IMG/VR virus record: IMGVR_UViG_3300050821_004356
Span: 32,001 to 96,000 of that record
DNA length: 64,000 nucleotides
Reading direction: 5' to 3' (one strand)
Origin: a virus
A model generated the notes under the pieces. It ran no database searches. It saw only the letters and a program-made list of their open reading frames with translations, and had not been told where the DNA came from. The translations under genes were made by a program, and so were the position numbers. Shown here in pieces: positions 8,621 to 61,413 of this stretch; the stretch's first letter is position 1; every line of letters starts with the position of its first letter.

Positions 8621-8961
8621 CTTTTCCTCAAATATTTACATATGCGTTCCGTTATATAGCCAATATGGTATGCTGGTGTTTCCCCTTTCAGTTTAATACC
8701 GACAAGTTTCATCATACTTTCAACAACGTGGAACGCCTCGTGGGCCGCTGTTCCAATAGACGCATCGGGGTTTAAGAACACGAAACAAACTTTTCCACCC
8801 GCATATATCGTAATCGCATCCGCTTCGCTGTCGCTATCATCAGCCAAATCTGCGATGTCTGAATACTTCTTGATAGATTTTTCTATATCGTCCGTTATTT
8901 CTACGTGGACGGTGAAATCAGAGAATACTGGAAATTTTATGAGCTCGATTCTATTTTTCAC
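8617..8961 (-). CDS. HExxH-motif hypothetical protein (zincin-like)
   Basis: AAHEAFHVV followed by E-x-P-A-Y. Confidence 0.6.
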   Translation of the reverse strand: MKNRIELIKFPVFSDFTVHVEITDDIEKSIKKYSDIADLADDSDSEADAITIYAGGKVCFVFLNPDASIGTAAHEAFHVVESMMKLVGIKLKGETPAYHIGYITERICKYLRKR

Positions 8962-11264: not shown

Positions 11265-11926
11265 CTATTTTTCTCGTACATGTTCTGCATCCACTTAGAT
11301 GCTGGGTTATAAGTCTCGAAATTACCAGGCTCGCTGTGGTAATGCCAAGAAATTTCTCTTTGAAATCCAAGAATCTTCCCAGCCGCAATCCCACGTTTAA
11401 TACGCGGCCCTAACGACTGCCCGACATACATATCCTCAGTCCAACGACCGGGATCGGTGGCCACAACTATCTCAGCTGCCTTGCGAGATACAAAATATCC
11501 ATAACCACCGGATGCCCAAGGATAGAAGTTAGGGACCGCTTCTCCATACCAGTCAAGAGTAAAAGTTGTGCCAAGCATGACGTTGCCCGTTTCGAACAGT
11601 CCAAAGTAATCGTAGTTCTCGAAGTGACACTTCATCAAACGTTCGGGGATCAAAAAAGTGTCATTGTCCGCTAAAAATGTATAATCGTATCCTTGTTGTA
11701 TAGACCACCGCAAAATCGCATGAGTCTTATGCTGTAAATGCTCATAATCGTCTCGCGTAGGGATTTGAACTGTACCTTCTACGGCGTTGTTCAGTGCGCG
11801 GTCGTACCCAACGAAGAAAAGCAAATCAGCCCCGACAACGTCCTTACCCCATGTTTCTAAAATAGCTTGGTGCGCGCCTCGATCCGAATCCCAGACACAC
11901 GATTTAATAGCGATTAAAGTTCTCAT
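11261..11926 (-). CDS. GT31/fringe-like glycosyltransferase
   Basis: AILETWG, DDYEHLQHKT, LADNDT, WASGGYGYFVS, EDMYVG. Confidence 0.8.
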   Translation of the reverse strand: MRTLIAIKSCVWDSDRGAHQAILETWGKDVVGADLLFFVGYDRALNNAVEGTVQIPTRDDYEHLQHKTHAILRWSIQQGYDYTFLADNDTFLIPERLMKCHFENYDYFGLFETGNVMLGTTFTLDWYGEAVPNFYPWASGGYGYFVSRKAAEIVVATDPGRWTEDMYVGQSLGPRIKRGIAAGKILGFQREISWHYHSEPGNFETYNPASKWMQNMYEKNR

Positions 11927-12669
11927 TTAAACTTACCATGTTTCTCGTACATCTCGTACTGCCAACCGCAACCGGGAAAATATGATTCGCTGTTGTGAAC
12001 ATCCCGGTAATGAAAGGATGCGTTGTTCCACAAATCATCGAGATTGGTGGCCCATATCTCTCCCGATTCAATCGCAGGACCTAAGGCCTGACCGGTAAAA
12101 GGCCCAATGTCCCAATGGCTAGGCGTTGCGTTCAAAACTATCTCAGCCGCTTTGCGACTTAAGAAATAGCCTACGCCGGGATTTGGATACGGATAGACCC
12201 TCCAATCGGACGTTGGGTTACGCGTTGGGCTGTGCGGCCACATCTGGTACGTGGTTCTTGTGCCAATTGGCGTGTCGAGCGGGAAGAAGCATCCAGAGAT
12301 GTCATACCTGGCGAAGTCTAGCGCCATTAATTTGCTAGGCACCATAAAGGTGTCGTTCTCACATTCGAACGTGAAATCATATCCTTGTTGAAGCGACCAA
12401 CGAAGATTTTCCTTTATATTTTTTTGCCAATAGTCTATGCAGCATCCTTCAACACACTGCCACCAAGGGTGCTCGCATGTCTTCGGCTGCTCCCAATCGA
12501 TTAGCACCTCGTCAGGTTTCGGTTGATAATCGGGCGAACGACGGCCGACAAAGAATCGCAAGTCGGCACCAGCTGCCGCGACGTCTTTGCCCCAGGTGCT
12601 CCGAATAGCGTCATGATTACCGTTTTCGGCGTCTCCTTGACAACTACAGACTGCTATAAGAACTTTCAT
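11923..12669 (-). CDS. GT31-like glycosyltransferase (divergent)
   Basis: AIRSTWG, CENDT, GVGYFLSRKAA; paralog of neighbours. Confidence 0.7.
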   Translation of the reverse strand: MKVLIAVCSCQGDAENGNHDAIRSTWGKDVAAAGADLRFFVGRRSPDYQPKPDEVLIDWEQPKTCEHPWWQCVEGCCIDYWQKNIKENLRWSLQQGYDFTFECENDTFMVPSKLMALDFARYDISGCFFPLDTPIGTRTTYQMWPHSPTRNPTSDWRVYPYPNPGVGYFLSRKAAEIVLNATPSHWDIGPFTGQALGPAIESGEIWATNLDDLWNNASFHYRDVHNSESYFPGCGWQYEMYEKHGKFK

Positions 12670-13862
12670 CTAGACGACCACAATAAATATCTGTCAATAA
12701 CACTAGCGACATATCTAATATCGTCTGCATCGAGTCCTTGGTGAATCCCTATCATAAAGCCATCGCGGGCCAAACGTTGGGAAATCGGATACTGTTCAAT
12801 TAGTCCTGGGAAAAGTTTCCTATACGCAGGACTTTCCAACAACGGAAACATATAACGGGTCTCCACGCCGCTTTTTTCTAAAAACATAAGCAACTTTTCT
12901 CTATCTACACCTGGCTTACAAGTCATTGGAAACATCATGTAAGCGTGCGTAAAGCCCTCGGGAGTATATGGAAGCCGTAGGTATTGCTGCTGGGGCGATA
13001 GCAAACTTATCAACAAATTAGCGTTGAGTTGTCGTCTCATTTCATTTTGTTCGAACCGCTCTAGTTCTGACAGGGCTATAGCCGCTTCAAGTTCTGTGGC
13101 TCTGTAGGAGTAACCTATTCGATCAAACTTGAATCTGCGCTCGATGATATTTTGAAGTGCGGAGCCCGACAAGCCGTCATCGGCGTCGATGTTTGTATAG
13201 ACAGAATCCCGGCCGTGAGCCATCAGTGACCGACACAACTCAGCTATCTTATCGTCGTTGGTCGTAACCAGGCCACCAACCCCTCCGACTACGTGGTGAT
13301 TGACGTACGTACTGAAACACGCCGCGTCCCCGAAGCTGCCTACTAATCGACCTCTGATGCTAGAACCTACAGCTTCACAAGAGTCCTCGATAACCTGAAG
13401 CTTGTGGTTTTTAGCGATCTCCATAATATAATCCATATCAGCTGGTAAACCGAACAGGTGTACCGGGATGATGCAACGCGTTCGCGACGTCAGCTTCGCG
13501 TATATCGCGGATGGCCTCATGTTATACGTGATTGGGTCCACGTCGACGAAGACGGGCACTAGGTTATTCTGGATGACGATGTTACTTGTGGCGATGAACG
13601 TTGTTGCCGGTACAAGCACCTCGTCGCCGTCTTGGTATCCATGTGTTTCCTTCAGCGCAGCCAAGGCGACTTGAAGCGCCGAGGTTCCGCTATTCATGAA
13701 GATGCCATGCTTGCAGCCGTGCATCAACGAGAACTGGCTTTCGAATTTTTGCGTGAAGAAGCCGTATGACAACCGATTGTTGTCCAATGCGGCGTTTACA
13801 TATTCTTTACCTTTGTCGCTAATGTTTAAAGTACCTAATGTTATCTTACGCTGTTGTACCAT
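12666..13862 (-). CDS. DegT/DnrJ PLP family enzyme, ColD/RfbH-type (His in place of the catalytic Lys); putative GDP-4-keto-6-deoxymannose 3-dehydratase
   Basis: NSGTSAL, GDEVLVP, PVHLFG, IEDSCEA, FSTYVNHH (His where aminotransferases have Lys). Confidence 0.8.
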   Translation of the reverse strand: MVQQRKITLGTLNISDKGKEYVNAALDNNRLSYGFFTQKFESQFSLMHGCKHGIFMNSGTSALQVALAALKETHGYQDGDEVLVPATTFIATSNIVIQNNLVPVFVDVDPITYNMRPSAIYAKLTSRTRCIIPVHLFGLPADMDYIMEIAKNHKLQVIEDSCEAVGSSIRGRLVGSFGDAACFSTYVNHHVVGGVGGLVTTNDDKIAELCRSLMAHGRDSVYTNIDADDGLSGSALQNIIERRFKFDRIGYSYRATELEAAIALSELERFEQNEMRRQLNANLLISLLSPQQQYLRLPYTPEGFTHAYMMFPMTCKPGVDREKLLMFLEKSGVETRYMFPLLESPAYRKLFPGLIEQYPISQRLARDGFMIGIHQGLDADDIRYVASVIDRYLLWSSR

Positions 13863-14758
13863 TCTATTGTCCTTGACAGCCCTGCTTCCAGCAAGGTGTT
13901 TGCTTCAAATCCAAATTCTTTAGCTCGACTAATATCGAGAACACGGCGAGGCTGGCCATCTGGCTTGGATGTATCCCAAAATATACCGCCTCTAAATCCT
14001 GAGAGCACCGTTATTTTCTGCGCTGTATCAAATATGCTGACTTCTCGACCTGAGCCCAAGTTAACAGGTTCCGCTTTATTGTACCGCTCCATTGCTAGTA
14101 TGATAGCATCGGCCGCGTCCTCGACGTATAGAAAATCACGAGTAGCTTTCCCGGTTCCCCACAATACGATATGCTCTTTGCCAGCGTTTACTGCGGTTGC
14201 TATTTTACCAATCATCGCAGGGATAAAGTGGGAGTCTTCTCCGAAATTGTCGCCTGGGCCGTACAGGTTCGTCGGTAACAAGTGAATGATATTCATGCCG
14301 TACTGCTGGCGGTAAGCCTGACCCATCGTAAGCAAGGCTCTCTTGGCTACGCCATATGCGGCGTTAGAGCCTTCTGGATATCCGTTCCACACATCTGACT
14401 CTACCAACGGGACCGCTGCGTCTCGGGGATACTCACAGGCACTGCCTATTTGGACAAACTTCCGAATCCCATAGGCTCGCGCACCCTCGATCAAATTCAT
14501 ACCTATCATCAAATTATCATGAAAGAACTTTCCTGGTAGTGCGATATTAGCACCGATGCCGCCAACTGCGGCCGCTAAGTTGATAACAATCTCAGGTTCC
14601 ATCCTTCGATACATTTGATCCGCTTCGTGAAAATATCTAAGGTCGTGGGTTTTTAGTTTCGGAACAAGAATATCGTAACCACCGTGTTCCCATAAACGTT
14701 GAACGACGTGCTTACCGAGAAAACCGTCGCCACCGGTGACCACAACTCTAGTGCTCAT
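13841..14758 (-). CDS. fcl: GDP-L-fucose synthase / ColC-like epimerase-reductase
   Basis: TGGDGFLG, AAAVGGIGAN, GSACEYP, YGVAK, PTNLYGPGDNF, SHFIPA, KPDGQPRR. Confidence 0.9.
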   Translation of the reverse strand: MSTRVVVTGGDGFLGKHVVQRLWEHGGYDILVPKLKTHDLRYFHEADQMYRRMEPEIVINLAAAVGGIGANIALPGKFFHDNLMIGMNLIEGARAYGIRKFVQIGSACEYPRDAAVPLVESDVWNGYPEGSNAAYGVAKRALLTMGQAYRQQYGMNIIHLLPTNLYGPGDNFGEDSHFIPAMIGKIATAVNAGKEHIVLWGTGKATRDFLYVEDAADAIILAMERYNKAEPVNLGSGREVSIFDTAQKITVLSGFRGGIFWDTSKPDGQPRRVLDISRAKEFGFEANTLLEAGLSRTIEWYNSVR

Positions 14759-15462
14759 AATCCACCCTCGTAGACGGAATGAAGTGAAATCATTTGTTGA
14801 GTATCATAAACGGCGGGACAGTTAGCAATATGCGATGTAATCACCCGGTTGCTTTTGCGAGGTGGGTCATCCCTGTCCAAATTTGTATACCGCTCATCGT
14901 GGCTAAGTTTGATTCCGTTTGCCTCCATCACATCACCTGTCCATTCATCGTAATTCCATTTGGTAACTGGCGCGTTGATTAAGAATTGCATCGCGCGCTT
15001 GCTTAACCAGAAACCGGGGCCACCACCCAAAGCTGTACGCTCGTCATTTGCGGTACCGAGATAATCGAACTTTTCGAATCCACTTTCCAATAGTCTTTCT
15101 GGTACAACGTATGTATCGGTAAGGCATTGGAAAATGTAATCGTATCCGTTTTCTAAAGCCCAGCGACAAGCTTCTCTAAGCTTAAAGCTTGCGTGCGAGT
15201 AACTATCCGGGATACGCAAAGCGACTTCATCCTCTCGAAGAACGTAAGTCCGAATGTCTGTGTCTTCGTATAGTCTTTTGTAATACAGCCAATCACTATT
15301 GTGCCAAGACTCTATCGCGTAGTTGTCTCCTATAACCGGCGTGCCGTCCCCCATAAAGAACTTATAGTTCTCAACATTTTTCAACCATGTATCGCGCATC
15401 ACTTGATTCTGACCGCCTACGGCGTGCTTGACACAGCTTAGAATAGCGATCAAGAATTGCAT
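14755..15462 (-). CDS. GT31-like glycosyltransferase (divergent)
   Basis: [29 protein letters not shown]. Confidence 0.7.
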
Positions 15463-16412
15463 TGTAGTTCTGCGTCCATCATCATCTTTACTAATTCACG
15501 AAATTTGAATTTTGGTTCCCACCTGAGAATACGTTTTGCTTTCGATGGATCGCCGAGCAAGAGATCGACCTCTGTTGGACGATAGTATTTCGGGTCTATC
15601 GCGACATATGGACGCCAGTTCATACCAAGATAACCGAAAGCTTCATCGAGAAAATCTCGCACCGAATGCGTCTCACCGGTGGCGATAACGAAGTCATCCG
15701 GAGTCTGTTGCTGCATCATCAAATACATCGCTTCGACGTAGTCCCCGGCGAACCCCCAGTCACGTTTGGCATCCAAATTACCGAGAACAAGTTCGTTTTG
15801 AAGACAGCGCGATATGCGGACAGCTGCTTTAGCAATTTTTCGGGTCACGAATGTCTCGCCACGTCTCGGGCTTTCATGATTAAAGAGAATTCCATTGCAA
15901 GCAAAGGTACCGTATGCCTCGCGGTGATTTATTACTGTCCAATAAGCGAACTGTTTAGCGATGGCGTATGGGCTACGAGGATGAAACGGGACGGTCTCAT
16001 CAACAGCTGCCCCATAAATCCCACCGTATAATTCACTAGAGCTTGCTTGATAAAACTTAATGCCCTTCCCTTTAATAGCCTCTAGGATATTAAGAGTTCC
16101 TATAGCAGTGGATTCGGCCGTGTAAACCGGGATGTCGAACGAAACTCTAACATGCGATTGAGCGGCCAAGTGGTAGATTTCATCCGGCTTTACTGTGTTG
16201 ATGATATTCGTTGTCGAACTGCCATCAGTAACATCCCCATAATGCAAGTATAGGCGGTCGAATATGTGATCGATGCGCTCGGTATTAATGCTGCTCGACC
16301 GGCGGATGATACCATGCACATCGTAGCCTTTTGACAGTAATAGCTCGGCGAGGTACGATCCATCCTGACCTGTAATGCCAGTGATAAGAGCTCTCTTCAT
16401 AAGCGCACCCAC
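15450..16412 (-). CDS. gmd: GDP-mannose 4,6-dehydratase
   Basis: [56 protein letters not shown]. Confidence 0.97.
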
Positions 16413-17191
16413 CTATCGGGTATCAAATCCTTGGTGTCTGTTCCATTAACAAACCACTTCCTGGGGAATACGCAAACACGACCTGGGTAGGCTCCCGCCC
16501 AGTCATCACCTAACCACGCTCCCCACCAACTGAACGATGAATTTGCCCCGATGCCGTGACGGCAGCAAGACATCAGATACAAATCATCGTGCATTGACGA
16601 TCCTCGAAAACTAGCTATTTCTAAATCCGGAAAGAGGAGCTTACAGTAGTCAGGGTCGTCGCTGAATACATAAAATTTAGGATTTTGAACTTTCTCTCGA
16701 ACGTATTCAATCGCTCGTTGATAGTAATTCGTGTCCTCCAAATTGCCGTGAACCGCGCTTGTACTCGGGTTAGTGTAGTCCCCGCGCCTTACGTGGATAA
16801 AGACGCTTTCTTTTTCGGAGAGTGCGTTGCCGGTGCCAACTGTCAACGGACTAGGATCGGTTTTCAATGTCAGTTCTGTACGTATAAAATACGAATAGTC
16901 CTGGAAGTACTTTTCGCTTTGCCAATAGCCACAAAGATACGCGTTAGACGGTTGACCTAATGCTTTGCCATCAAAATTAAACGATGCTTCGGTGTATAGA
17001 CTAGTTGCACTAATCGGGTTGACAAGCGGGTTGACAAGCTCTTCGTTGACGTTGTATTTATCTAAGGCATAATCCCGGGTTGACCTCGCCCAATGAAACT
17101 GAACAGGCTCATTACGACGAAAAGACAACGCGCGGCCGAATGCGTACATGAACATCTGATTTCCTAAGCCGCCTGTCAATCGAACGATCAT
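16397..17191 (-). CDS. GT11 alpha-1,2-fucosyl/colitosyltransferase
   Basis: [39 protein letters not shown]. Confidence 0.93.
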
Positions 17192-17901
17192 GCTACCAGT
17201 ATCCCCTTCTTGAAAAGATTGTCAAAATCGCCACCGACCTCTGCGGTCATCTTCATATATTCCGGTTTGTACGGCATACTGACCTTTGGATAGTGTGATG
17301 TGCCTAAAACACCAGGTGTAAAATTTGTAGCCTTGAGCATGTGACTATCGATCATCGGTGCAAGCGTTTGACCCGTCTGAAGGTCTTCGGCCCAAAAAGT
17401 TGGCGGTGTAGAACCAACAACGTCGGCTGCCCTCCGACTTAAGAAATAGCCCCAACCGCCTGATGCCCAAGCCCTGCACTCTGGGTAGCTACCGTACGCG
17501 TCGGTATACGAAAACGGCGCGCCGCCAGGTAGTTGATTGTTTTTAAACCAACCTGCGTAGTCGTACCACTTAAAATCAGACATCAAAAATGCCCTCGCGT
17601 TGATATACGTATCTGTGTCGCAAAGGAAAACTCGCTCGAACGTCTTGCCCATAACCCATTGACATATGCGCCTGGTCTTGATGGGCAGCGATTCGTAGTC
17701 ATCCCGACAGTCGACGACCACTTCGTTTGAAACGTACCGACGGCAACGGCGGGTATCTTGCTGTGTCGGGTCAGTACCAACGAAGAAATAGGTCTCTACA
17801 CCGAGCGCCTTAAGGTCGCGAGCCCAAGTGGACCTAATTGCGTCGTGGTAGCCCCTGTCGAGGTCCTTGTGGCAGGATTTTACGCAGACGGCTAAGTTCA
17901 T
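17188..17901 (-). CDS. GT31/fringe-like glycosyltransferase
   Basis: AIRSTWA, DDYESLPIKT, CDTDT, WASGGWGYFLS, WAEDL. Confidence 0.8.
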   Translation of the reverse strand: MNLAVCVKSCHKDLDRGYHDAIRSTWARDLKALGVETYFFVGTDPTQQDTRRCRRYVSNEVVVDCRDDYESLPIKTRRICQWVMGKTFERVFLCDTDTYINARAFLMSDFKWYDYAGWFKNNQLPGGAPFSYTDAYGSYPECRAWASGGWGYFLSRRAADVVGSTPPTFWAEDLQTGQTLAPMIDSHMLKATNFTPGVLGTSHYPKVSMPYKPEYMKMTAEVGGDFDNLFKKGILVA

Positions 17902-52400: not shown

Positions 52401-52658
52401 ATGTGGCTGACATTTAAAGAGCGGATTATCGTGCCGACAAATGTAGAGCGCCTCAAAAAGGTTCTCCCAGAGAAGACGGTCGAAGCTCTTGTCGAGGCTG
52501 CTGAAAAGGTCCAAGACAAGTTCGACGCCGATCCCAGCTTGAAAGATTTGTACCCCGGGTATAGTTCGTTGCTGAACGAGATCGCGAAGAACGTAAAGAC
52601 TCCGGAAGCGGACGAAAAGAAGTTTGAAATAGTGCTTGACAAACGATCTAACCCGTAG
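52401..52658 (+). CDS. hypothetical protein
   Basis: follows promoter. Confidence 0.55.
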   Translation: MWLTFKERIIVPTNVERLKKVLPEKTVEALVEAAEKVQDKFDADPSLKDLYPGYSSLLNEIAKNVKTPEADEKKFEIVLDKRSNP

Positions 52659-52664
52659 TACGAT
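52636..52664 (+). promoter_or_regulatory. sigma70-type promoter at the head of the RNA island
   Basis: TTGACA-17-TACGAT. Confidence 0.75.
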
Positions 52665-53249
52665 AGCATCACGGTCGAGGACGATAGCAGAAAGCGACCA
52701 CGCAGAAGCGACAATGCCTCGGAGGGTGGCGACCATTACCGCCAAATTTTATGATCATATACATCTGTAAAGATAAATGCAACCACATCAGTGGTATCTT
52801 TACTACCGAAGAGGTAGCAAAGAAGCATGCTGAGAAAATAGGCAATAAAGTCGAACCTTGGGTTGTGTTTGAGACAGATGATCGTTTTAGGTATACAGAA
52901 GACGGCGGGATGTATATCGTTTAAAAGTTTAGCAACAAGAGTTAGGCGCGGCAAGCCGAGGATGCTCGGTTTGGGAGACATCCCTTAATGTCCCGCCTTT
53001 AAGTTCAAATCGTGGGCTCCTGTCCGGAGCGGACAAACACGAGGCGGTCAGGTGGTTCACCGAACACGTGACCCAACTGGGTTGTACTAGTGGGCTTATA
53101 GTGACGGGCTTTCTGACTTATGAAACGAACCAAAAGTTTTGAAGTAAAAGTTTGAGCAGAACAGCATGTCAGACGGGTCGGAGAAATCTGATTACGTTAT
53201 CAACGGCGTACACCTGAAATGGTGCCAGCACTCTGCTCATAAAAGTTTG

Positions 53250-53655
53250 TCCACGGTGAGTACTCGATTGCGTTCAGCCGGATCGAGAATCTGCGTTAAC
53301 TTCGGTTACGGGAACTCCCGACTGAGTGGGCAAAACGAGTCATGCAGGGTGAACTGAGCGCCCGATTGTGGCATACATAGTAGGGGAGAACGCCAGTATC
53401 TGTGCTCATGACGCGGCGGAATGCAACATCCGCAAAATATTATCCCTCGGGCACTGTGACCGTAAGGCACAGACGGAAGTACGATGGAGTCGCCCGATAT
53501 TATTACTTGCTGCTTGCCGGTGAGACGCTAAGGCTCTGCAGGGCCAAGCTGGTGAGTTTGCTAGCCGTGTCTTTGTTATTCCGATCCTATGGTCGGTATT
53601 GCATAGAACGCCAATTACGAGAAGGCGTTCGGTTCGAAACGTTCTCGTGGTTGAA
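53250..53655 (+). ncRNA. candidate large structured ncRNA (about 400 nt), family unassigned
   Basis: no credible ORF; terminal CCACG/CGTGG pairing and many internal hairpins; preceded by the AAAAGTTT spacer used in the tRNA array. Confidence 0.5.
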
Positions 53656-53680
53656 TACATTTTAGTAACACGGGGGAAGT

Positions 53681-54046
53681 ATGAACGTAGACGTAAACTA
53701 TGCACTGGCCGCACTTGTTTGCGGCTTCGCAGGCGGCGTTGATTCAGTTCTTACTTGCTACGGAATAACGGTCGCAGGTTTTGTGGAAGCGAATCCGTTG
53801 TATAAGATTCTCCCCACGAGTGTCAGTAACTTTATTTTGAAGAGCGCGTTCGGCGTGTTCTTGTGGGGTGGCTTTCGGGTAATCGGCACCGGAGTTATGG
53901 CTAAGGTTTTAGCTGATCACGGTTTCTATACGAACACCGGTTCCTTGTTCTTTTGGATTCCGGCGGCTGGCTTGGTAGCTTTGAACGTTCGCAACGGGTT
54001 GATGATCCTAAAGGCCAAGAAAGCGGTCGCAGCGGTTAAGAAGTAA
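53681..54046 (+). CDS. DUF5658-like membrane protein
   Basis: D..LT.YGI...GFVEANPL and three hydrophobic segments. Confidence 0.65.
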   Translation: MNVDVNYALAALVCGFAGGVDSVLTCYGITVAGFVEANPLYKILPTSVSNFILKSAFGVFLWGGFRVIGTGVMAKVLADHGFYTNTGSLFFWIPAAGLVALNVRNGLMILKAKKAVAAVKK

Positions 54047-54056
54047 AAGTTTCGAT

Positions 54057-54132
54057 GGTGTCCGTAGTGTAGTGGCTAGCACGCGGGCCTGTGAAGCCTT
54101 AAGGTTGGTTTCGAATACCAAGGGACACCCCA
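54057..54132 (+). tRNA. tRNA-His(GTG)
   Basis: cloverleaf, G-1:C73, CCA. Confidence 0.85.
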
Positions 54133-54151
54133 TATTTTTAAAGATAAGTGC

Positions 54152-54180
54152 TTGACAAAGTTTTAAGATCGCGATACAAT
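54152..54180 (+). promoter_or_regulatory. strong sigma70 promoter of the tRNA array
   Basis: TTGACA-17-TACAAT. Confidence 0.85.
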
Positions 54181-54192
54181 GTTTTTGTAAAT

Positions 54193-54271
54193 CGAGGAAT
54201 GGGGAAGTCTGGCCGTTCCCGCTGCTTTCGGAAAGCAGAGATCGTTGATTCGAATTCAACTTCCTCGACCA
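54193..54271 (+). tRNA. tRNA-Pro(CGG)
   Basis: CGAGGAA/TTCCTCG acceptor, loop TT CGG AA, CCA. Confidence 0.9.
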
Positions 54272-54273
54272 GT

Positions 54274-54347
54274 CGGGCGTTCTGATAGTGGTAGTCTCCG
54301 TGCTTTGGAAGCATGTGGCGTGTGTTCGATTCACACATGCCCGACCA
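54274..54347 (+). tRNA. tRNA-Pro(TGG)
   Basis: cloverleaf, CCA. Confidence 0.88.
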
Positions 54348-54540
54348 TTTTATTAAGTTTGGACCCAACATGTCTGATCATGACAGACGCTCGCGCGCTG
54401 GTAAGGGCACCGGGTCCAATTGCGATAACCTTAAAATTCTGACCGGTACGGTTTAGAAGCCGGTATCGCAACGAGCCTCGGCGTCGGCTCACTAAAATAT
54501 AGACGCCAGGATTTAAGTCCAGCACGGAGAAGCTATTGTG

Positions 54541-54647
54541 TTGGCGGATCAGACGGAAATGTGGGTTCGAATCCCACGGGCTATAACAGGTGAGTCAGCC
54601 GTGTATACGGCACCTGAGCCTTTAGTGCAATGGTAGCACGCCGTCAA
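54541..54647 (+). ncRNA. circularly permuted tRNA-like RNA (Y RNA/YrlA-like)
   Basis: order T arm (GTGGG TTCGAAT CCCAC), closed acceptor-like stem, D arm (GTGC AATGGTA GCAC); flanked by GACGG/CCGTC. Confidence 0.7.
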
Positions 54648-54656
54648 ATTTTCTAT

Positions 54657-54741
54657 TCCCGAGTGGCGGAATGCATACGTAACGCGTTTAGACCGCGTCG
54701 CTCGAAAGAGATTGTGGGTCCAAGTCCCACCTCGGGAACCA
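54657..54741 (+). tRNA. tRNA-Leu(TAG)
   Basis: long variable arm, CCA. Confidence 0.9.
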
Positions 54742-54748
54742 ATTTTGT

Positions 54749-54823
54749 GGCTCTCTCGTTCAATGGAGAGGACGTTCGGTTTCTACCCGAACAATGTCGG
54801 TTCGATTCCGACGGGGGCTTCCA
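54749..54823 (+). tRNA. tRNA-Arg(TCT)
   Basis: cloverleaf, CCA. Confidence 0.9.
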
Positions 54824-54829
54824 AGTTTT

Positions 54830-54905
54830 GGGTCTATCGTCCAAAGGGACAGGGCTCGGGTTTCCTAAACCCGCAATCACGGTTCGATCCCGTGTGGACC
54901 CTCCA
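54830..54905 (+). tRNA. tRNA-Arg(CCT)
   Basis: cloverleaf, CCA. Confidence 0.9.
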
Positions 54906-54911
54906 GTTTAT

Positions 54912-54987
54912 GGGCTTCTCGTCTAACAGGACAAGGCTCTGGTCTTCGAAACCAGCTATCGCGATTCGAGTTCGCGGAGGCCCTCCA
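54912..54987 (+). tRNA. tRNA-Arg(TCG)
   Basis: cloverleaf, CCA. Confidence 0.9.
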
Positions 54988-54992
54988 GCTTT

Positions 54993-55068
54993 GAACTTGT
55001 CATCTAACGGGACAAGGTGCAGCCCTGCGAAGGCTGATATCACGGTTCGAGTCCGTGCAGGTTCACCA
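54993..55068 (+). tRNA. tRNA-Arg(GCG)
   Basis: CAGCC CT GCG AA GGCTG, CCA. Confidence 0.88.
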
Positions 55069-55076
55069 TTTTTAAT

Positions 55077-55161
55077 CCGCTGCTGGCGAAACGGCAGACG
55101 CATCCGCCTCAAGAGCGGACGCCTAAACAGCGTGAAGGTTCGAATCCTTCGCGGCGGACCA
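55077..55161 (+). tRNA. tRNA-Leu(CAA)
   Basis: long variable arm, CCA. Confidence 0.9.
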
Positions 55162-55169
55162 AGTTCTGT

Positions 55170-55249
55170 GGGTGGTCCCGCGCACCGCGCGGCTCTGTGA
55201 TGAAGCTAGACTAGTCACAGGATGAGTGGTGAGATTCCACGACTTCCCA
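55170..55249 (+). ncRNA. non-canonical cloverleaf (tRNA mimic)
   Basis: four stems, T-like loop TGAGATT, 14-nt loop in the anticodon position. Confidence 0.5.
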
Positions 55250-55259
55250 GATTTTCAAT

Positions 55260-55349
55260 TGTCGGTTGCGAAGGTTCGTGGCAGAGTCTTATAAACTCTT
55301 CGGGCCAGATAAGCCTTGCCGGAAAGATCGTTACTTTCATCGACAACCA
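55260..55349 (+). tRNA. atypical tRNA with TAT anticodon (Ile-AUA reader?)
   Basis: TGTCGGT/ATCGACA acceptor, AGAGT CT TAT AA ACTCT, long variable region, T loop ATCGTTA, CCA. Confidence 0.7.
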
Positions 55350-55353
55350 ATTT

Positions 55354-55437
55354 GAGCGTGTGGCGGAAAGGCATACGCAGGGCACTTAAAATGCCCCGTC
55401 GAAAGACATGAGGGTCCGAATCCCTCGGCGCTCACCA
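55354..55437 (+). tRNA. tRNA-Leu(TAA)
   Basis: long variable arm, CCA. Confidence 0.9.
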
Positions 55438-55442
55438 AGTTT

Positions 55443-55516
55443 GCATGAATCGACAAGTGGTAAGTTAGCTGTTTGCAAAACAGCCATCAGTGGTTCGATT
55501 CCACTTTCATGCTCCA
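55443..55516 (+). tRNA. tRNA-Cys(GCA)
   Basis: U73, CCA. Confidence 0.92.
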
Positions 55517-55599
55517 AGTTTGGGCACCTGACACCTAACAGTGGCAGGGGAAAGTCCAAAACGTTTTCGCACGGTCAACGAAAGACGGTGCTACATTTT

Positions 55600-55877
55600 G
55601 GTAGCGTAGACGAACGCGGCGAGAAACCCGAGAGGGCTATAAGCCGAGGAAATTCAGGCCACATCTCAACATCGAACGGTGGAAGCTGCCGGACGCGTAA
55701 GCGTACAAGTAAGGCTCGATACCGAAAGGTCATTCAAGTCGAGTAACTCTTTTCGGGTGTAAGCGCAAATAGGCTCTGAGAACTTGTTGAGTTTGATGAA
55801 GAGCGGGTAGCGTGCTTCGCGAAAGCGACTAGAGAGGAATGTTCGTTCTAGACAGAAGCCTGATTATAGCGTCACCA
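55600..55877 (+). ncRNA. rnpB: compact RNase P RNA
   Basis: P2 GACGAACG/TGTTCGTT, P3 CGGC/GCCG, CR-I GAGGAAATTCAGGC pairing (P4) with CR-V ACAGAAGCCTGATTA, CR-IV CTAGAGGAATG. Confidence 0.82.
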
Positions 55878-55890
55878 AAATAATTTTCAA

Positions 55891-55966
55891 GTGTCTGTAG
55901 CTCATTCAGTAGAGCACTCGGCTCTTACCCGAGGGGTGGTTGGGGCAGAGCCAACCAGACGCACCA
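55891..55966 (+). tRNA. tRNA-Lys(CTT)
   Basis: cloverleaf with atypical T loop GGCAGAG, CCA. Confidence 0.85.
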
Positions 55967-55968
55967 AT

Positions 55969-56043
55969 GGAGTGCTAGTGTCAAAGTAGCACAGCGGCCT
56001 TTTAAGCCGACGAGTGTTGGTCCAAGTCCAACGCGCTCCACCA
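55969..56043 (+). tRNA. tRNA-Lys(TTT)
   Basis: cloverleaf, CCA. Confidence 0.85.
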
Positions 56044-56052
56044 ATTTTCTGT

Positions 56053-56128
56053 AGCCTGTTAGCAAACTGGCCGTATGCACCTCGCCTACACCGAGGCCGG
56101 AAGAGTTCGATTCTCTTACGGGCTACCA
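56053..56128 (+). tRNA. tRNA-Val(TAC)
   Basis: loop CC TAC AC, CCA. Confidence 0.88.
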
Positions 56129-56237
56129 ATTTTCGATTGCCCGGTTGCTTACGGCGACGGTGTAGATGAGTGTGTCGGAACCGAGAGGCCGTAAATACTC
56201 CACGGCGGCATTCACCGCAATCGAATTAATTTTCTGT

Positions 56238-56312
56238 GGCGATGTCATCTAGTGATTAGGATGCTTGCTTCTCAAGCAAGTCACGCGGGTTTGAATCCCG
56301 CCGACGCTACCA
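56238..56312 (+). tRNA. tRNA-Glu(CTC)
   Basis: cloverleaf with acceptor mismatches, CCA. Confidence 0.85.
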
Positions 56313-56321
56313 AGTTTCAGT

Positions 56322-56395
56322 GCCGCTATCTGCTATGGATAGGCAACGAGACTTTCAATCTCGTAGACAGGGTTTGAGTCCCTGTAGCGGTACCA
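56322..56395 (+). tRNA. tRNA-Glu(TTC)
   Basis: cloverleaf, CCA. Confidence 0.9.
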
Positions 56396-56405
56396 ATTTT
56401 ACAGT

Positions 56406-56481
56406 GGGCAGTTAGTGTTAAATGGGAGCACGTGTCGCTTGCACCGACAAAGTGAGGGTTCGAATCCGTCACAGTCCACCA
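56406..56481 (+). tRNA. tRNA-Ala(TGC)
   Basis: G3:U70, CCA. Confidence 0.9.
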
Positions 56482-56492
56482 ATTTTTCCTGT

Positions 56493-56568
56493 TGTCGCGG
56501 AGCACATGTGGACGGGCGCTCGCTCGATAAGCGAGAGGTAGGTGGTTCGAATCCACCGGCGACAACCA
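56493..56568 (+). tRNA. tRNA-Ile(GAT)
   Basis: loop TC GAT AA, CCA. Confidence 0.85.
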
Positions 56569-56584
56569 ATTTTTGCGGTGACAT

Positions 56585-56827
56585 ATGACGATAGCAGACG
56601 CAGCATCAGTTGCGGCACTAGCAGTCGATTTGATTGCCTTGTGGTTCCTGATTGGGATTTGGAAAGATGATCATGCGATGAGAGTCGCATCGGAAGAGTC
56701 TTTGAAGGCCCAGTTAGAGTATCTTGGATTGCGCCGTAAATGGTACGAAGGCCGCACCAAGAAAAAGGACGAAAAGAATGTCGCTCAGTCTAGACCAGAA
56801 GATGGCACTGACGCGAACAGTCTGTAA
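56585..56827 (+). CDS. small membrane protein inside the tRNA array
   Basis: N-terminal TM helix. Confidence 0.55.
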   Translation: MTIADAASVAALAVDLIALWFLIGIWKDDHAMRVASEESLKAQLEYLGLRRKWYEGRTKKKDEKNVAQSRPEDGTDANSL

Positions 56828-56891
56828 CATTCTTGGAGTCATCATCTCAATCATCTACGTTGTGTGGGTGATGAGTAAATAAATTTTCAAT

Positions 56892-56978
56892 TGTAGGGTC
56901 GACTAGCGGCCGATGTCGCGGGTCTCATAAGCCCGATGCGAAAGCACACCGTGGGTTCGAATCCCACCTCTGCAACCA
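56892..56978 (+). tRNA. tRNA-Met(CAT), initiator-like, with long variable arm
   Basis: CGGGT CT CAT AA GCCCG; TGC GAAA GCA variable hairpin; CCA. Confidence 0.85.
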
Positions 56979-56985
56979 ATTTTGA

Positions 56986-57060
56986 GCGAGGCTGATGTTA
57001 GTGGTAGCATGTCAGTCTTCCAAACTGAACGGACGAGTTCGAGTCTCGTGCTTCGCTCCA
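56986..57060 (+). tRNA. tRNA-Gly(TCC)
   Basis: GCG/CGC, U73, CCA. Confidence 0.92.
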
Positions 57061-57065
57061 ATTTT

Positions 57066-57139
57066 GCTTTGTTAGTTCAACGGTAGAACGCGTCCTTGGT
57101 AAGGATGAGGTAAAGGTTCAATTCCTTTACGAAGCTCCA
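57066..57139 (+). tRNA. tRNA-Thr(GGT)
   Basis: cloverleaf, CCA. Confidence 0.92.
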
Positions 57140-57146
57140 GTTTTGA

Positions 57147-57222
57147 GCACGGCTCATACAGCGGCCTAGTATGCGAAGCTTGTACCTTCGACACGTTGGT
57201 TCAAATCCAGCGCTGTGCTCCA
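57147..57222 (+). tRNA. tRNA-Thr(TGT)
   Basis: cloverleaf, CCA. Confidence 0.9.
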
Positions 57223-57324
57223 ATTTCTAGAACGTGGAACCGCGAGTCTGTGGAATGGCGGATAGTGCAGACCTGAATAATGCTCCGGTACTCCGGAGAC
57301 GCGAACGCCCCACGAGATTTATGA

Positions 57325-57398
57325 GCACTGCTAGTCTAGTGGCAGGACACTCCCCTCGTAAGGCAGAGGCAACTGTTCGATTCAGTTGCGGTGCTCCA
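57325..57398 (+). tRNA. tRNA-Thr(CGT)
   Basis: cloverleaf, CCA. Confidence 0.88.
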
Positions 57399-57471
57399 AG
57401 TTTTGTGCTGTGACATAAAACACATCGGTGAGAGGCGTCCATAGACCCACCGAGGCACAAAAGTTTTCTGA

Positions 57472-57545
57472 GCGATGTTGGTATAGTGGTAGCACGAGAC
57501 CTTGCCAAGGTCTAGGCACCGTTTCGATTACGGTACGTCGCTCCA
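57472..57545 (+). tRNA. tRNA-Gly(GCC)
   Basis: cloverleaf, U73, CCA. Confidence 0.9.
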
Positions 57546-57554
57546 ATTTTCTGT

Positions 57555-57643
57555 GGATGGTTAGCTCAAGCGGCAACGACACTTGGCTGTAAACCAAGCG
57601 GTCCTAGCGACCTTCCGAGGTTCGAGTCCTCGACTATCCACCA
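57555..57643 (+). tRNA. tRNA-Tyr(GTA)
   Basis: long variable arm, CCA. Confidence 0.92.
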
Positions 57644-57654
57644 TAATTTTCTAC

Positions 57655-57742
57655 TGGGGTGTGGCTCAATTGGTACAGCACCTGACTGTTAATCAGGCAG
57701 AGTTAACGCTCATTATAGGTTCGAATCCTATTGCCCCAGCCA
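57655..57742 (+). tRNA. tRNA-Asn(GTT) with long variable arm
   Basis: CCTGA CT GTT AA TCAGG, G73, 17-nt variable region. Confidence 0.88.
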
Positions 57743-57750
57743 TTTTAAAC

Positions 57751-57828
57751 GGAGATGTCGCGTAGAGGCCTATCGCACTCCCCTGTCACGGGAGATCATC
57801 GTGGGTTCGAATCCCATCATTTCCGCCA
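57751..57828 (+). tRNA. tRNA-Asp(GTC)
   Basis: G73, CCA. Confidence 0.92.
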
Positions 57829-57836
57829 TTTTCAAC

Positions 57837-57911
57837 AGGTCGGTAGTGTAACGGTAACATCACGCACTCCAAACGCGTCGGATGGGGGTTCGAGTCCCTC
57901 CTGACCTGCCA
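57837..57911 (+). tRNA. tRNA-Trp(CCA)
   Basis: AGG/CCT, G73, CCA. Confidence 0.92.
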
Positions 57912-57919
57912 ATTTTTAC

Positions 57920-58010
57920 GGAAGGTTGACGGAACCTGGCTAACGTATAGGTTTGCTAAACCTAAGTCAACCGAAAGGTTGTTTGTGTTCAAATCACAAA
58001 CCTTCCGCCA
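57920..58010 (+). tRNA. tRNA-Ser(GCT)
   Basis: long variable arm, G73, CCA. Confidence 0.9.
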
Positions 58011-58015
58011 TTTAC

Positions 58016-58099
58016 GGAGGATGCCGCTCAAGGGGGCAATCCGGTTTGAACCCGGAGGGCGCTGTAAGGCGCGGTGTTCGATTCATCCTTCCTCCTCCA
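58016..58099 (+). tRNA. tRNA-Ser(TGA), probable 8/4 fold
   Basis: GGAGGATG/CTTCCTCC 8-bp acceptor (one U-U), 4-bp T stem GGTG/CATC. Confidence 0.8.
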
Positions 58100-58192
58100 T
58101 ATTCTACGCTCGTGGCTGAAATGCCGTTTGGTGTAGACACACCCTAACGGGGACTGAGCACCGTCGCTAACAGTATAAAATTGGGGCGACAT

Positions 58193-58266
58193 CCCTTGTA
58201 GGTGTAACGGTAGCACCTTCCGTTGAAGCCGGAAAGGACGTGGTTCAATTCCACGACTCGGGACCA
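58193..58266 (+). tRNA. tRNA-Phe(GAA)
   Basis: cloverleaf with two acceptor mismatches, CCA. Confidence 0.8.
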
Positions 58267-58274
58267 TTTTCAAT

Positions 58275-58350
58275 TGGGATGTAGTTTAACTGGCAAAATA
58301 GTCGGCTTTGAACCGACCAGATGAAGGTCCGAATCCTTCCGCCCCAACCA
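58275..58350 (+). tRNA. tRNA-Gln(TTG)
   Basis: U1:A72, CCA. Confidence 0.9.
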
Positions 58351-58359
58351 ATTTTCAAT

Positions 58360-58435
58360 TGCCAAGTGGCGCAACTGGTAGCGCAGGCGGCTCTGAACCG
58401 CAAGGCTGATCGTTCGAATCGATCTTTGGCAACCA
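58360..58435 (+). tRNA. tRNA-Gln(CTG)
   Basis: U1:A72, CCA. Confidence 0.9.
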
Positions 58436-58501
58436 ATTTTCAATTCAGGTCACTATGAGACGGACCTGGAGATTCCCCAAATAATTTAAAAGTGAGGGAA
58501 G

Positions 58502-58798
58502 ATGCATGACCGAATAGATAAATTGAAAAATCATATGTTTTATGGTTCGACTTATCAAAGCGAACTAAGGGAGATACTTATGGCATTCGCAGACGCAATC
58601 GCAAAGCTTCAAGCAGACGTCGCAACGTTGATCGCCGAGAACGGCCCAGCCGCAGTCGCAGCGGCCGTAGCAGCGAAAGATGCATCCGACGCAGCCGCAG
58701 TTGCCGCAGTTGACGCAACCGTGGTAGCAGCATTGACACCGGCAGCACCGGCCCCGGCTCCAGTAGCACCAGCGGCCCCGGCAGCACCGGCAGCTTAA
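58502..58798 (+). CDS. Ala/Pro-rich small protein (likely start MAFAD at 58580)
   Basis: GGAG RBS before MAF. Confidence 0.6.
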   Translation: MHDRIDKLKNHMFYGSTYQSELREILMAFADAIAKLQADVATLIAENGPAAVAAAVAAKDASDAAAVAAVDATVVAALTPAAPAPAPVAPAAPAAPAA

Positions 58799-58832
58799 TA
58801 AGTTACCCCCGACGTTAACTCGTCGGGACAAT

Positions 58833-58932
58833 TTCTGGGTAGCTCAAAGACGTCGATAAGAGCACTCGTTCCCTGTTTAAGTCGCAAGACGCAAATCGAG
58901 AGTGTGGAGACTTAGGCGCACCTCCCCCAGAA
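58833..58932 (+). ncRNA. degenerate or expanded tRNA-like element
   Basis: TTCTGGG/CCCAGAA, TA, GCTC/GAGC D stem, CTCG/CGAG with 28-nt insert, GGAG/CTCC; no CCA. Confidence 0.45.
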
Positions 58933-59975: not shown

Positions 59976-60280
59976 TGACGGCGCACCACACAACGCAACA
60001 TACTCAGGTTCGTAATCAGAACCACGGCGCACAAAGAGACAATCATGGTCGTAGAGACCCGCGCTCTTTCGACGCAGGTACGCACCATCGCGTCGAAGAG
60101 AGACGTTATCGAGATGGTCATTGGAACGTCCGATTCGAAGGATACTGGTTTGAGTGCAGTGTGTGGCCTGCTTGGGCGCTTTATGAAGACGTATATTTTG
60201 TAGAAGGTCCGAACGGAGTATTTTTCGTGTATGAGTATAATAATCCGGCTATGTTCCTTCAAGTTTATTTAGTTGATTAA
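59903..60280 (+). CDS. hypothetical protein (likely start 59975)
   Basis: His/Arg-rich N-terminus, aromatic-rich C-terminus; TAATG coupling. Confidence 0.5.
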   Translation: MAAFLYAHRVAIPDNSKVSNFGELMTAHHTTQHTQVRNQNHGAQRDNHGRRDPRSFDAGTHHRVEERRYRDGHWNVRFEGYWFECSVWPAWALYEDVYFVEGPNGVFFVYEYNNPAMFLQVYLVD

Positions 60281-60339
60281 GTTTTACTAAGATTAAAGTA
60301 GTAAATTTTTAGCCACTTCGGTGGCATAGAGGAAACAAC

Positions 60340-61413
60340 GTGTCTATTACTTCACAGCTTTTGACTGGCGCAAATTACGCGCTCAACGCGTATTCTGGTA
60401 TCACGAACTCCGGTCTTACCGTTATTTCTGGCGGTAACATCGGGTCTTTCCCGACGTCGTCTATTACAGGCTTCCCCCCAGGCCTGCTTTCTCCTCCAGC
60501 AGTTATAGACAACGCTGATTCGTTGCAAGCGCGTCTAGATGCTCTTTCCGCATACAATACGTTTGCGGCCCTCGCGTTTACTTCATTGGGTGCATCCTCA
60601 GTTAATCTCTCCGTATCTGGCAACGGCTCTTCGGCTTCGACTTACACTCCCGGTAACTACTCTGCAGGAACTAGCATGGATATTCCTACTAGTATCACAC
60701 TAGATGCGCAAGGAAACCCGAACGCTGTGTTCATCTTTAAAGCAGGCAGCACAGTTACCCTTGAAAGCGGGGCCTCTGTTTTGCTCGTCAACGGAGCCGC
60801 AGCACAAAACGTTGTGTGGCTCGTAGGCACTTCATTCACGTCTATCTTTGCTGGCACATCAGTTATGGTCGGCAACATCTTGGCGCAAGCCTCTGCCACA
60901 TTGGGCGGCGGTGTTCTAAGCGGTCGTGTCCTAGCAGGTCTAAACAATTCGAGCGGTGCGATTACTATCGCGACTGCGCTTGCTTTGACAGTTCCAGTAT
61001 CGGGCGGTGGGGTCGCTCCACCTCCTACGAGGGCTGGCGGTGCGGCTCAGTGTCTTATCTCTCAGAATTTGGGAGCGTCGGTTTTGTTAGCTTGGCCGCA
61101 GAATAGTCCCGGAGTTCAAGGACAATTCTTAGACCTAGTCCAAATCGTTGACGAAGGTGGAAATTTTGTACTCAACGTCGACTTTAGCGGTGCTGTTCAC
61201 TATCCCGCAATTCTACCAACTAATGGCACGAGAATCGGCCAATATCAAACGAGATTTGGTCTGTCTGGTAGTGGTCTTCCCGTAACTACACTTTCGCAAG
61301 TAATGCATGACGCTTTCACTAATCCACAATTTCTTGACATCATTCAAATAATCAATGTGGGAGGAAATATCTCCTATTGGTGGAATTCCGAAGGCGTCGC
61401 GACCGGTTCCTAG
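60340..61413 (+). CDS. DUF3494 ice-binding-like protein with C-terminal duplicated module
   Basis: ITNSG.TVI.G.IG.FP.SSITGFPPG, A..DA..AYN, TPG.Y, ITLDAQGNPNAVFIF, LVNGA.AQNVVW.VG, GNILAQ, LSGRVLA. Confidence 0.88.
   Translation: MSITSQLLTGANYALNAYSGITNSGLTVISGGNIGSFPTSSITGFPPGLLSPPAVIDNADSLQARLDALSAYNTFAALAFTSLGASSVNLSVSGNGSSASTYTPGNYSAGTSMDIPTSITLDAQGNPNAVFIFKAGSTVTLESGASVLLVNGAAAQNVVWLVGTSFTSIFAGTSVMVGNILAQASATLGGGVLSGRVLAGLNNSSGAITIATALALTVPVSGGGVAPPPTRAGGAAQCLISQNLGASVLLAWPQNSPGVQGQFLDLVQIVDEGGNFVLNVDFSGAVHYPAILPTNGTRIGQYQTRFGLSGSGLPVTTLSQVMHDAFTNPQFLDIIQIINVGGNISYWWNSEGVATGS

Follow-up and report, generated by a model that had tools for sequence, protein, structure and literature searches.

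RNase P RNA, the RNA enzyme that trims new transfer RNAs (tRNAs), is regarded as a universal cellular housekeeping ribozyme, and its presence in a virus raises the question of whether a phage needs its own catalyst for tRNA 5′ processing. Such a gene lies in the phage IMGVR_UViG_3300050821_004356, a 111,567-bp IMG/VR record with direct terminal repeats that is rated complete. The window analysed here is a stretch of 64,000 nucleotides (nt), bases 32001-96000 of that record, and all positions given below are those of the window. The region in question, 52636-58932, was described in an initial annotation as a self-contained RNA island with 34 tRNAs for all 20 amino acids, an RNase P ribozyme, a Y-like RNA and many unknown RNAs. 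The ribozyme, which is matched by the Rfam family RF00010 at 55598-55882 and covaries in 12 sequences, turned out to be a conserved gene of a whole phage clade, always situated in the tRNA operon.

55598-55882, plus strand: RNase P RNA, bacterial class A, reduced specificity domain, 285 nt (RF00010)
55517-55597, plus strand: unit E, leader before the ribozyme, hairpin with AACGAAA loop

The RF00010 match is the only one in the genome. It spans model positions 1-367 (full length) with 90 bits and an E-value of 6e-27. The same family is matched in 12 of 24 portal-related records examined, including five of five complete genomes, and also in relative G001, which gives 13 related phages. In these the ribozyme always lies inside an island of 21-33 tRNAs whose gene order is largely shared. 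Three relatives pass the RF00010 cut-off (102-112 bits), and 10 of the 13 phages score below it. G001 was reached via a 14-nt word, after which the portal protein gave 48 more loci. Two 14-nt word scans returned mostly chance matches; filtering left at least one and at least eight true loci among the matches listed, and these matches hold at least six further motif-positive ribozyme loci, also in tRNA arrays. Other queries found less. A DNA search of GenBank phages with the island gave tRNA-sized matches only and no close relatives, orf121 (a protein gene of the island) searched against viral and metagenome contigs and an 18-nt ribozyme word gave no close relatives, and the large terminase gave two small fragments only.

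The evidence for a selected structure comes from an alignment of 12 ribozyme sequences with a mean column identity of 60%, in which blastn identity to the window copy is 63-80%. Over 72 pairs, 96.4% of the cells are paired, as compared to 36-41% when the 3′ partners are slid, and compensatory (both-sided) change is seen at 48 of the 72. P4 (alignment columns 90-98 with 371-378) is 100% paired, five of its eight pairs covary, and its bulged U (column 93) is invariant and unpaired. With the P15-P17 region aligned to the model, L15 carries CGGGU in 12 of 12 sequences, in the form CGGGU(A/U). The stretch CAAAUAGG of the J5/15-P15-L15 region is likewise invariant, conserved regions CR-I, CR-IV and CR-V are invariant or nearly so, and P7-P11 are kept with covariation. 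The complete specificity domain (P7-P14) is not present: about 25 nt replace the 77 nt of P12-P14 in the model.

Compared with class A RNase P RNA (RF00010; E. coli M1 RNA, rnpB), the phage RNA shares the P1-P5 core, the P4 pseudoknot with its bulged U, CR-I (GAGGAAAUUCAGGC), CR-IV, CR-V, the P7-P11 cruciform and the J5/15-P15-L15 region (CAAAUAGG...CGGGUAG). It differs in being virus-encoded within a tRNA operon and in its size, 285 nt against approximately 377 nt of M1 RNA; the clade ranges from 285 to 349 nt and the window copy is the shortest. It lacks P13 and P14, its P12 hairpin is short and variable, and P18 occurs in some members only. No cognate protein gene (RnpA) was found in the phage. 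The RNA keeps the catalytic core of a type-A ribozyme and is predicted to cleave.

Two observations concern the ends and the surroundings of this RNA. Its first 20 nt (55598-55617, TTGGTAGCGTAGACGAACGC, P1/P2 strand) are identical in seven phages, the rest being about 63-80% identical, which suggests an extra constraint, e.g., processing or protein binding. Directly upstream, the slot of unit E, from tRNA-Cys to the RNase P RNA, is filled in six relatives; the AACGAAA loop is kept, and by eye the stem changes between GUC/GAC, GAU/AUC and GUU/AAC, whereas RNAalifold gave no consensus for the unit. A transfer-messenger RNA with the tag AADASGSNGAF, called by ARAGORN in the relatives L282 (5794-6091) and L311 (6046-6343), overlaps both tRNA-Lys and the ribozyme; this call is almost certainly spurious.

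The phage might keep an RNase P-like RNA for a non-catalytic purpose, as a sponge for host RnpA, as a decoy for a nuclease or defence sensor of the host, or as a processing or stability element of the precursor, and leave the cutting to host RNase P. The reduced specificity domain without P13/P14, a score under the Rfam curated cut-off (90 vs. 100 bits), the lack of RnpA in the phage and the hint of extra constraint at the 5′ end all agree with such a role. However, the strongest compensatory conservation falls on the catalytic parts, namely P4 with its bulged U, CR-I/IV/V and the GGU of L15, and the sponge version is disfavoured because a sponge would not need them. We consider non-catalytic retention quite improbable. 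For a working ribozyme, since the phage is without RnpA, the most likely partner of the phage RNA is the host RnpA.

The presumed substrates are encoded on both sides of the ribozyme:

54057-54132, plus strand: tRNA-His(GUG) with encoded G-1 (ARAGORN, Rfam)
54193-54347, plus strand: tRNA-Pro(CGG), tRNA-Pro(UGG)
54657-55161, plus strand: tRNAs Leu(UAG), Arg(UCU), Arg(CCU), Arg(UCG), Arg(GCG), Leu(CAA)
55260-55516, plus strand: tRNA-Ile(UAU) (90 nt, atypical), tRNA-Leu(UAA), tRNA-Cys(GCA) (ARAGORN)
55891-56128, plus strand: tRNA-Lys(CUU), tRNA-Lys(UUU), tRNA-Val(UAC)
56238-56568, plus strand: tRNAs Glu(CUC), Glu(UUC), Ala(UGC), Ile(GAU)
56892-57222, plus strand: tRNAs CAU (87 nt, long variable arm), Gly(UCC), Thr(GGU), Thr(UGU)
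57325-57398, plus strand: tRNA-Thr(CGU)
57472-58099, plus strand: tRNAs Gly(GCC), Tyr, Asn (88 nt), Asp, Trp, Ser(GCU), Ser(UGA)
58193-58435, plus strand: tRNAs Phe(GAA), Gln(UUG), Gln(CUG)

The number given in the initial annotation is correct: there are 34 tRNA genes, all on the plus strand, with 34 different anticodons for 20 of 20 amino acids. ARAGORN called 32 of them (54058-58435, all on the plus strand). The remaining two are tRNA-Lys(CUU) at 55891-55966, which has CUU in its anticodon loop and was detected with Rfam alone (43.7 bits), and tRNA-Ser(UGA) at 58016-58099, a weak Rfam tRNA-Sec match read by eye, with a long variable arm. All 34 have a cloverleaf with a 7-nt anticodon loop, and 31 pass the RF00005 gathering score; Val(UAC) and Ile(UAU), the latter with an odd T loop, are called by ARAGORN only. 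The operon spans 5.8 kb of the roughly 111-kb genome. The tRNA array stops at 58435, short of 58932, the end of the island in the initial annotation.

The claims about tRNA ends and spacers also held. CCA is encoded at the 3′ end of 34 of 34 tRNAs, TTT follows the CCA within 5 nt in 29 of 34, and T (U) stands at position -1 in 23 of 34. On the plus strand of the island, the density of the motif A[AG]TTT is 6.35 per kb; the minus strand has 1.75 per kb and the rest of the genome about 2.9 per kb, an enrichment of 2- to 3.6-fold on the sense strand. The motif is also found 3′ of non-tRNA units and of two stop codons. The phage encodes no CCA-adding enzyme, RtcB or RNA ligase, and no tRNA repair genes. 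That the phage supplies a full decoding set together with its 5′ maturation catalyst appears to be true in part: there are 34 anticodons and a catalytic core kept under compensatory evolution, but the set would still depend on the host, because it includes a single CAU tRNA and RnpA is not encoded by the phage.

Several tRNAs are unusual. tRNA-Ile(UAU) (55260-55349) measures 90 nt, has a long variable arm and the T loop AUCGUUA, and is missed by Rfam; its position is kept in most related islands, and it would read AUA without lysidine. The CAU tRNA (56892-56978, 87 nt) and tRNA-Asn (57655-57742, 88 nt) each have about 13-14 nt inserted in the variable arm; in G001, tRNA-Asn is of normal size (74 nt). 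The T loop of tRNA-Lys(CUU) is GGCAGAG, not UUCGAAU, and the G001 island has at about 9494-9590 a tRNA-like sequence with the same odd T arm that ARAGORN leaves uncalled. A tRNA called Tyr with the anticodon AUA adjoins tRNA-Pro in G006, G012, L282 and L311; it is not in this window.

Among the non-tRNA units, the best-defined one is itself tRNA-shaped:

54497-54648, plus strand: permuted tRNA-like RNA, core 54550-54648, 5′ hairpin domain 54497-54549

The core runs in the order T arm, capped extended hairpin in the place of the acceptor, D arm. A 5-bp closing stem (GACGG/CCGUC) joins both ends where the anticodon stem would sit, and there is no anticodon loop. The minimum-free-energy fold is this cloverleaf (z -2.05). 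Seven copies were found in six phages, among them short forms with 7-8-bp acceptor stems and tetraloop caps; the long 5′ domain occurs in G000 and G002 only. Counted on an author-drawn structure, 80.6% of the cells are paired vs. 57% in shuffled and at most 45% in slid controls, and 18 of 23 pairs show compensatory change. The covariance model R1 scores members at 60 bits or more and dimeric-tRNA junctions at 32 bits or less; it found no further copies, the next matches being junctions of neighbouring tRNAs.

The unit had been called Y-like. It shares with YrlA-type Y RNAs (Chen et al. 2014, PMC4201824) the order of T arm, closed acceptor-like stem and D arm as well as tRNA-type nucleotides (T loop UUCGAAU, D loop AAUGGUA), and the short forms in relatives resemble M. 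smegmatis YrlA, which is cleaved by RNase P (PMC4201824). The conserved permuted unit with the YrlA topology stands, but it is not demonstrable as a Y RNA. The complete 111.6-kb phage genome has no match to the Ro60/TROVE gene (PF05731). The YrlA motif GNCGAAN0-1G is absent from 54433-54652 and from four of five homologous units, the one match being in a D arm. Moreover, the unit lacks a conserved long 5′/3′ Ro-binding helix, and it resides in a tRNA operon, whereas YrlA adjoins rsr. We do not adopt the Y RNA identity for want of a Ro gene, the motif and the helix. Most likely, the unit is a mimic derived from tRNA that keeps the elbow intact and lacks a free acceptor end; it would bind a host factor recognising the tRNA elbow.

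Another explanation, put forward in the initial annotation, is that the island serves mainly in counter-defence, with replacement tRNAs and with decoy RNAs to absorb tRNA-cleaving nucleases of the host. There are reports that infection is rescued from tRNA-targeting defences by phage tRNAs (PMC10264068, PMC11555353, PMC12409363), tRNA 3′ tails are a reported defence target (PMC12851939), and the island both covers 20 of 20 amino acids and contains tRNA mimics. On the other hand, nothing in the sequence ties it to a particular defence, and there are no tRNA repair genes. The permuted unit cannot be a decoy for anticodon nucleases because it has no anticodon loop. With the best mimic so constituted and about half of the inter-tRNA units not conserved, the original proposal that decoy or regulatory RNAs are released against tRNA-destroying defences is unsupported, and counter-defence as the main purpose seems unlikely.

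The island was also said to be self-contained, which it is not. It holds protein genes and transcription signals:

52636-52664, plus strand: promoter-like site P1, TTGACA-17-TACGAT, putative
52751-52924, plus strand: orf57, a doubtful small open reading frame; weak PHROG match (E 0.0024), no tblastn homologue in related islands
53681-54046, plus strand: orf121, conserved small membrane-type protein
54152-54180, plus strand: promoter-like site P2, TTGACA-17-TACAAT (11/12)
56585-56882, plus strand: orf80 (56585-56827) and overlapping orf52 (56724-56882), small conserved proteins
58502-58798, plus strand: orf98, conserved, in three different slots in relatives
58806-58829, plus strand: hairpin, conserved in G012 and G017

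orf121, orf80 and orf52 lie among the tRNAs and orf98 after the last one. orf121 has 13 homologues at 64-100% identity, a tblastn match in G012 and G006, and no PHROG match; contigs of 79.9 and 29.5 kb are among those coding for its homologues, here at 84-88% identity. tblastn matches exist for orf80 in five relatives and for orf52 in three, again with no PHROG match. Judged by protein-level conservation, orf121, orf80, orf52 and orf98 are real genes. orf98 stands 3′ of the last tRNA here, and in three relatives between Met/Gly, Ile/Gly or Thr/Tyr tRNAs. The P1 region is similar to the region upstream of the G007 island, and sites of the form TTGACA(A)-N17-TAnnnT, to which both P1 and P2 conform, occur across the genome, several of them preceded by GC. 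No strong intrinsic terminator closing the island was found. Other proteins of the phage include a large terminase, a portal protein, a major head protein, a primase-polymerase and a UvrD-type helicase, and a DegT-family aminotransferase is encoded elsewhere in the window (region 8958-17901, a sugar-pathway/glycosyltransferase locus according to the initial annotation).

The remaining units between the genes are as follows:

52672-52750, plus strand: U1, leader unit ending ..CCGCCA + AATTTT (fold z -0.59)
52931-53006, plus strand: U2, structured unit flanked by AAAGTTT and AAGTTC (fold z -2.48)
53007-53249, plus strand: U3 and U4, non-coding units with AAAGTTT delimiters (fold z -0.88 and -1.25)
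53495-53668, plus strand: unit X, conserved structured RNA ending GAATAC + ATTTT, with a GGTTCGAA-type loop
54362-54420, plus strand: unit C1, short member of the CTCG..CTGGTAAGG family
54421-54496, plus strand: unit C2, two hairpins (fold z -2.57), no homologue found
55167-55250, plus strand: unit D, cloverleaf-shaped without a tRNA-type anticodon loop (fold z -2.59)
56134-56227, plus strand: unit G, 7-bp closing stem CGAUUGC/GCAAUCG, no CCA (fold z -0.84)
57228-57316, plus strand: unit I, structured spacer (fold z -2.06)
57404-57460, plus strand: unit J, small three-way junction with AGTTTT on both sides (fold z -1.80), no homologue found
58100-58192, plus strand: unit K, structured (fold z -2.26)
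within 58502-58932, plus strand: unit M2, ending ..CCCCAG + AATTTTT (fold z +0.48)

No known Rfam family matches any non-tRNA unit at E up to 10, and RF00005 at the same limit has no match on units D, G, I, J, K and E; the Rfam rows for CRISPR-DR4, mascRNA and small nucleolar RNA are chance matches or tRNA echoes. The phrase "many unknown RNAs" applies to some of the units only. U2, X, C1, E and K are conserved: unit X has homologues in five phages with compensatory change at 15 of 30 predicted pairs, U2 is 91% identical over 67 nt to G001, and unit K is 90% identical over 97 nt to G012. The C1 family is present in seven phages, with elements of about 85-155 nt in six relatives (blastn clusters) in the slot before tRNA-Leu(UAG); its RNAalifold consensus is weak and so is its covariation (9 of 21 pairs). 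In contrast, sequence search in relatives gave no homologues for U3, U4, C2, D, G, I, J and M2, the only match to U3/U4 being one of 38 nt to G005, and unit I has none though its slot is filled in most relatives. Conservation of U1 is partial. Its block 52716-52750 (35 nt) is 100% identical in G005 and G016, in which tRNA-His follows it directly; in the window it stands before orf57 and contains a terminator-like hairpin (52727-52744) about 60 nt downstream of the P1 -10 element. The covariation check across related phages that had been proposed succeeded for the ribozyme, the permuted unit and unit X, was weak for C1, and found no homologues for D, G, I and J.

These results have to be set against the view that the non-tRNA units do not act in trans but are degenerate or rearranged copies of tRNA genes, spacers, attenuators, signals for processing or scars left by homing endonucleases that shuffle modules, to be removed and degraded during maturation. 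The islands are mosaics, in which modules occupy different slots in different phages, as orf98 does, and by eye some island gaps of relatives hold an HNH-like coding sequence. The origin of the permuted unit from a tRNA is plain, and a related strain lacks D and G. Sequence search gave no homologues for D, G, I, J, U3 and U4, and fold z-scores of the units, M2 apart, run from -0.6 to -2.6. Against this view, compensatory changes in five to seven phages preserve the pairing of the permuted unit, of unit X and of the hairpin in unit E. Copies of U2 and K with about 90% identity occur in phages whose islands, outside the tRNAs, otherwise have little DNA similarity, and two contigs of one RNA study (run X4) fall on U2 and C1/C2. 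We regard purely cis-acting or passive units as a real possibility, though one that falls short of probable, and retain the view that the units are mixed. They would comprise conserved structured RNAs (X, C1, U2, K), the ribozyme leader hairpin (E) and spacers that turn over fast and are specific to a lineage (D, G, I, J).

Starting from the observed gene content, conservation and covariation, we infer the transcription units, processing enzymes, catalysis and trans-acting functions as follows. Long precursors from two sigma-70-type promoters would contain the 34 tRNAs, a few small protein genes and the non-tRNA RNAs. They would be cut in the A(A/G)UUU spacers after almost every unit by RNase E-type host enzymes; RN|WUU is the cleavage preference of these enzymes, and the spacers fit it. 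The 5′ ends of the tRNAs would be made by RNase P, and CCA addition would be unneeded because every tRNA has an encoded CCA. In RNase P RNA the GGU of L15 pairs with the tRNA 3′ CCA, and the GGU kept by the phage ribozyme could pair with the CCA of the phage tRNAs in this manner. The 285-nt RNA would function as a type-A ribozyme whose specificity domain is shortened, and its likely role is to add to, or to secure, the 5′-processing capacity for the burst of phage pre-tRNAs.

As a whole, the island is probably best explained as a phage tRNA operon with its own RNase P ribozyme and a tRNA-like RNA, belonging to a clade of soil phages of about 100-110 kb; the sequencing runs that contain the phage are soil metagenomes. 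RNA data, assembled contigs from two soil metatranscriptomes (X3 and X4) of different studies, include the island. Contigs from the two studies match the window at 100% identity over unit E, the ribozyme and tRNA-Lys. The exact matches in X4 are four contigs, 52850-53004 (U2), 54353-54527 (C1/C2), 55533-56071 (unit E, the ribozyme and two tRNA-Lys) and 60125-60342 (downstream). X3 covers plus-strand genes from 49 kb on and not 46.0-48.4 kb, a segment that a DNA run covers evenly.

Some points tell against this explanation, in addition to the ribozyme's score below the cut-off and its missing P13/P14. The RNA contigs speak for presence in RNA libraries only, not for ends, strand or abundance, and an adapter-flanked RNA fragment (55549-55866), considered as a record of RNA ends, was rejected, neither of its ends being at a unit boundary. 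Of the two strong promoters initially proposed, both sigma-70-like sites exist, but the number of promoter-like sites in the region is not above that in shuffles (9 vs. 6.5 ± 2.6 expected). The suggested involvement of RNase E derives from the spacer motif. Finally, D, G, I, J, U3 and U4, with modest fold z-scores, have no homologues found, and D and G are absent from a related strain in the DNA run X5.

A stronger reading would make the island an autonomous module of tRNA biogenesis, in which the ribozyme with its leader hairpin matures pre-tRNAs when host rnpB is limiting or shut off, and tRNA mimics from the same precursor occupy host elbow-reading proteins of processing, quality control or defence. 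If this were true, RNA decoys and a functional ribozyme of the translation apparatus would be combined in one virus, but we hold this reading to be doubtful. In any case, besides the question of the phage's own 5′-processing catalyst, the locus raises the questions of how small a natural type-A ribozyme can be when working with a foreign protein subunit and of what anticodon-less tRNA-shaped RNAs do during infection. The clade offers a compact natural ribozyme series (285-349 nt) for structure-function work.

Large phage tRNA arrays, the T4 RNAs C and D, YrlA and anti-defence phage tRNAs are already known. A full-text literature search, whose coverage leaves out much subscription literature, retrieved no description of an RNase P RNA encoded by a virus. 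What is new here is the clade-wide conservation of RNase P RNA with covariation, its reduced size with P7-P11 kept, a leader hairpin that is conserved, and a family of permuted tRNA-like RNAs in the same operon. The nearest parallel for the non-tRNA units is the T4 tRNA cluster, where small non-tRNA RNAs are also transcribed from a phage tRNA region, namely the small stable RNAs C and D, whose roles are unknown (PMC3014915). T4 differs in having 8 tRNAs and no ribozyme, and showed no sequence similarity to the island in the DNA search of GenBank phages. The large tRNA arrays of T5-like phages, mycobacteriophages and jumbo phages share dozens of clustered tRNA genes with the island, and codon-supply and anti-defence roles have been proposed for such arrays (PMC10264068, PMC11555353, PMC5966550). 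The present island differs from them in the CCA on every tRNA, the uniform spacer motif, and the embedded ribozyme and tRNA mimics.

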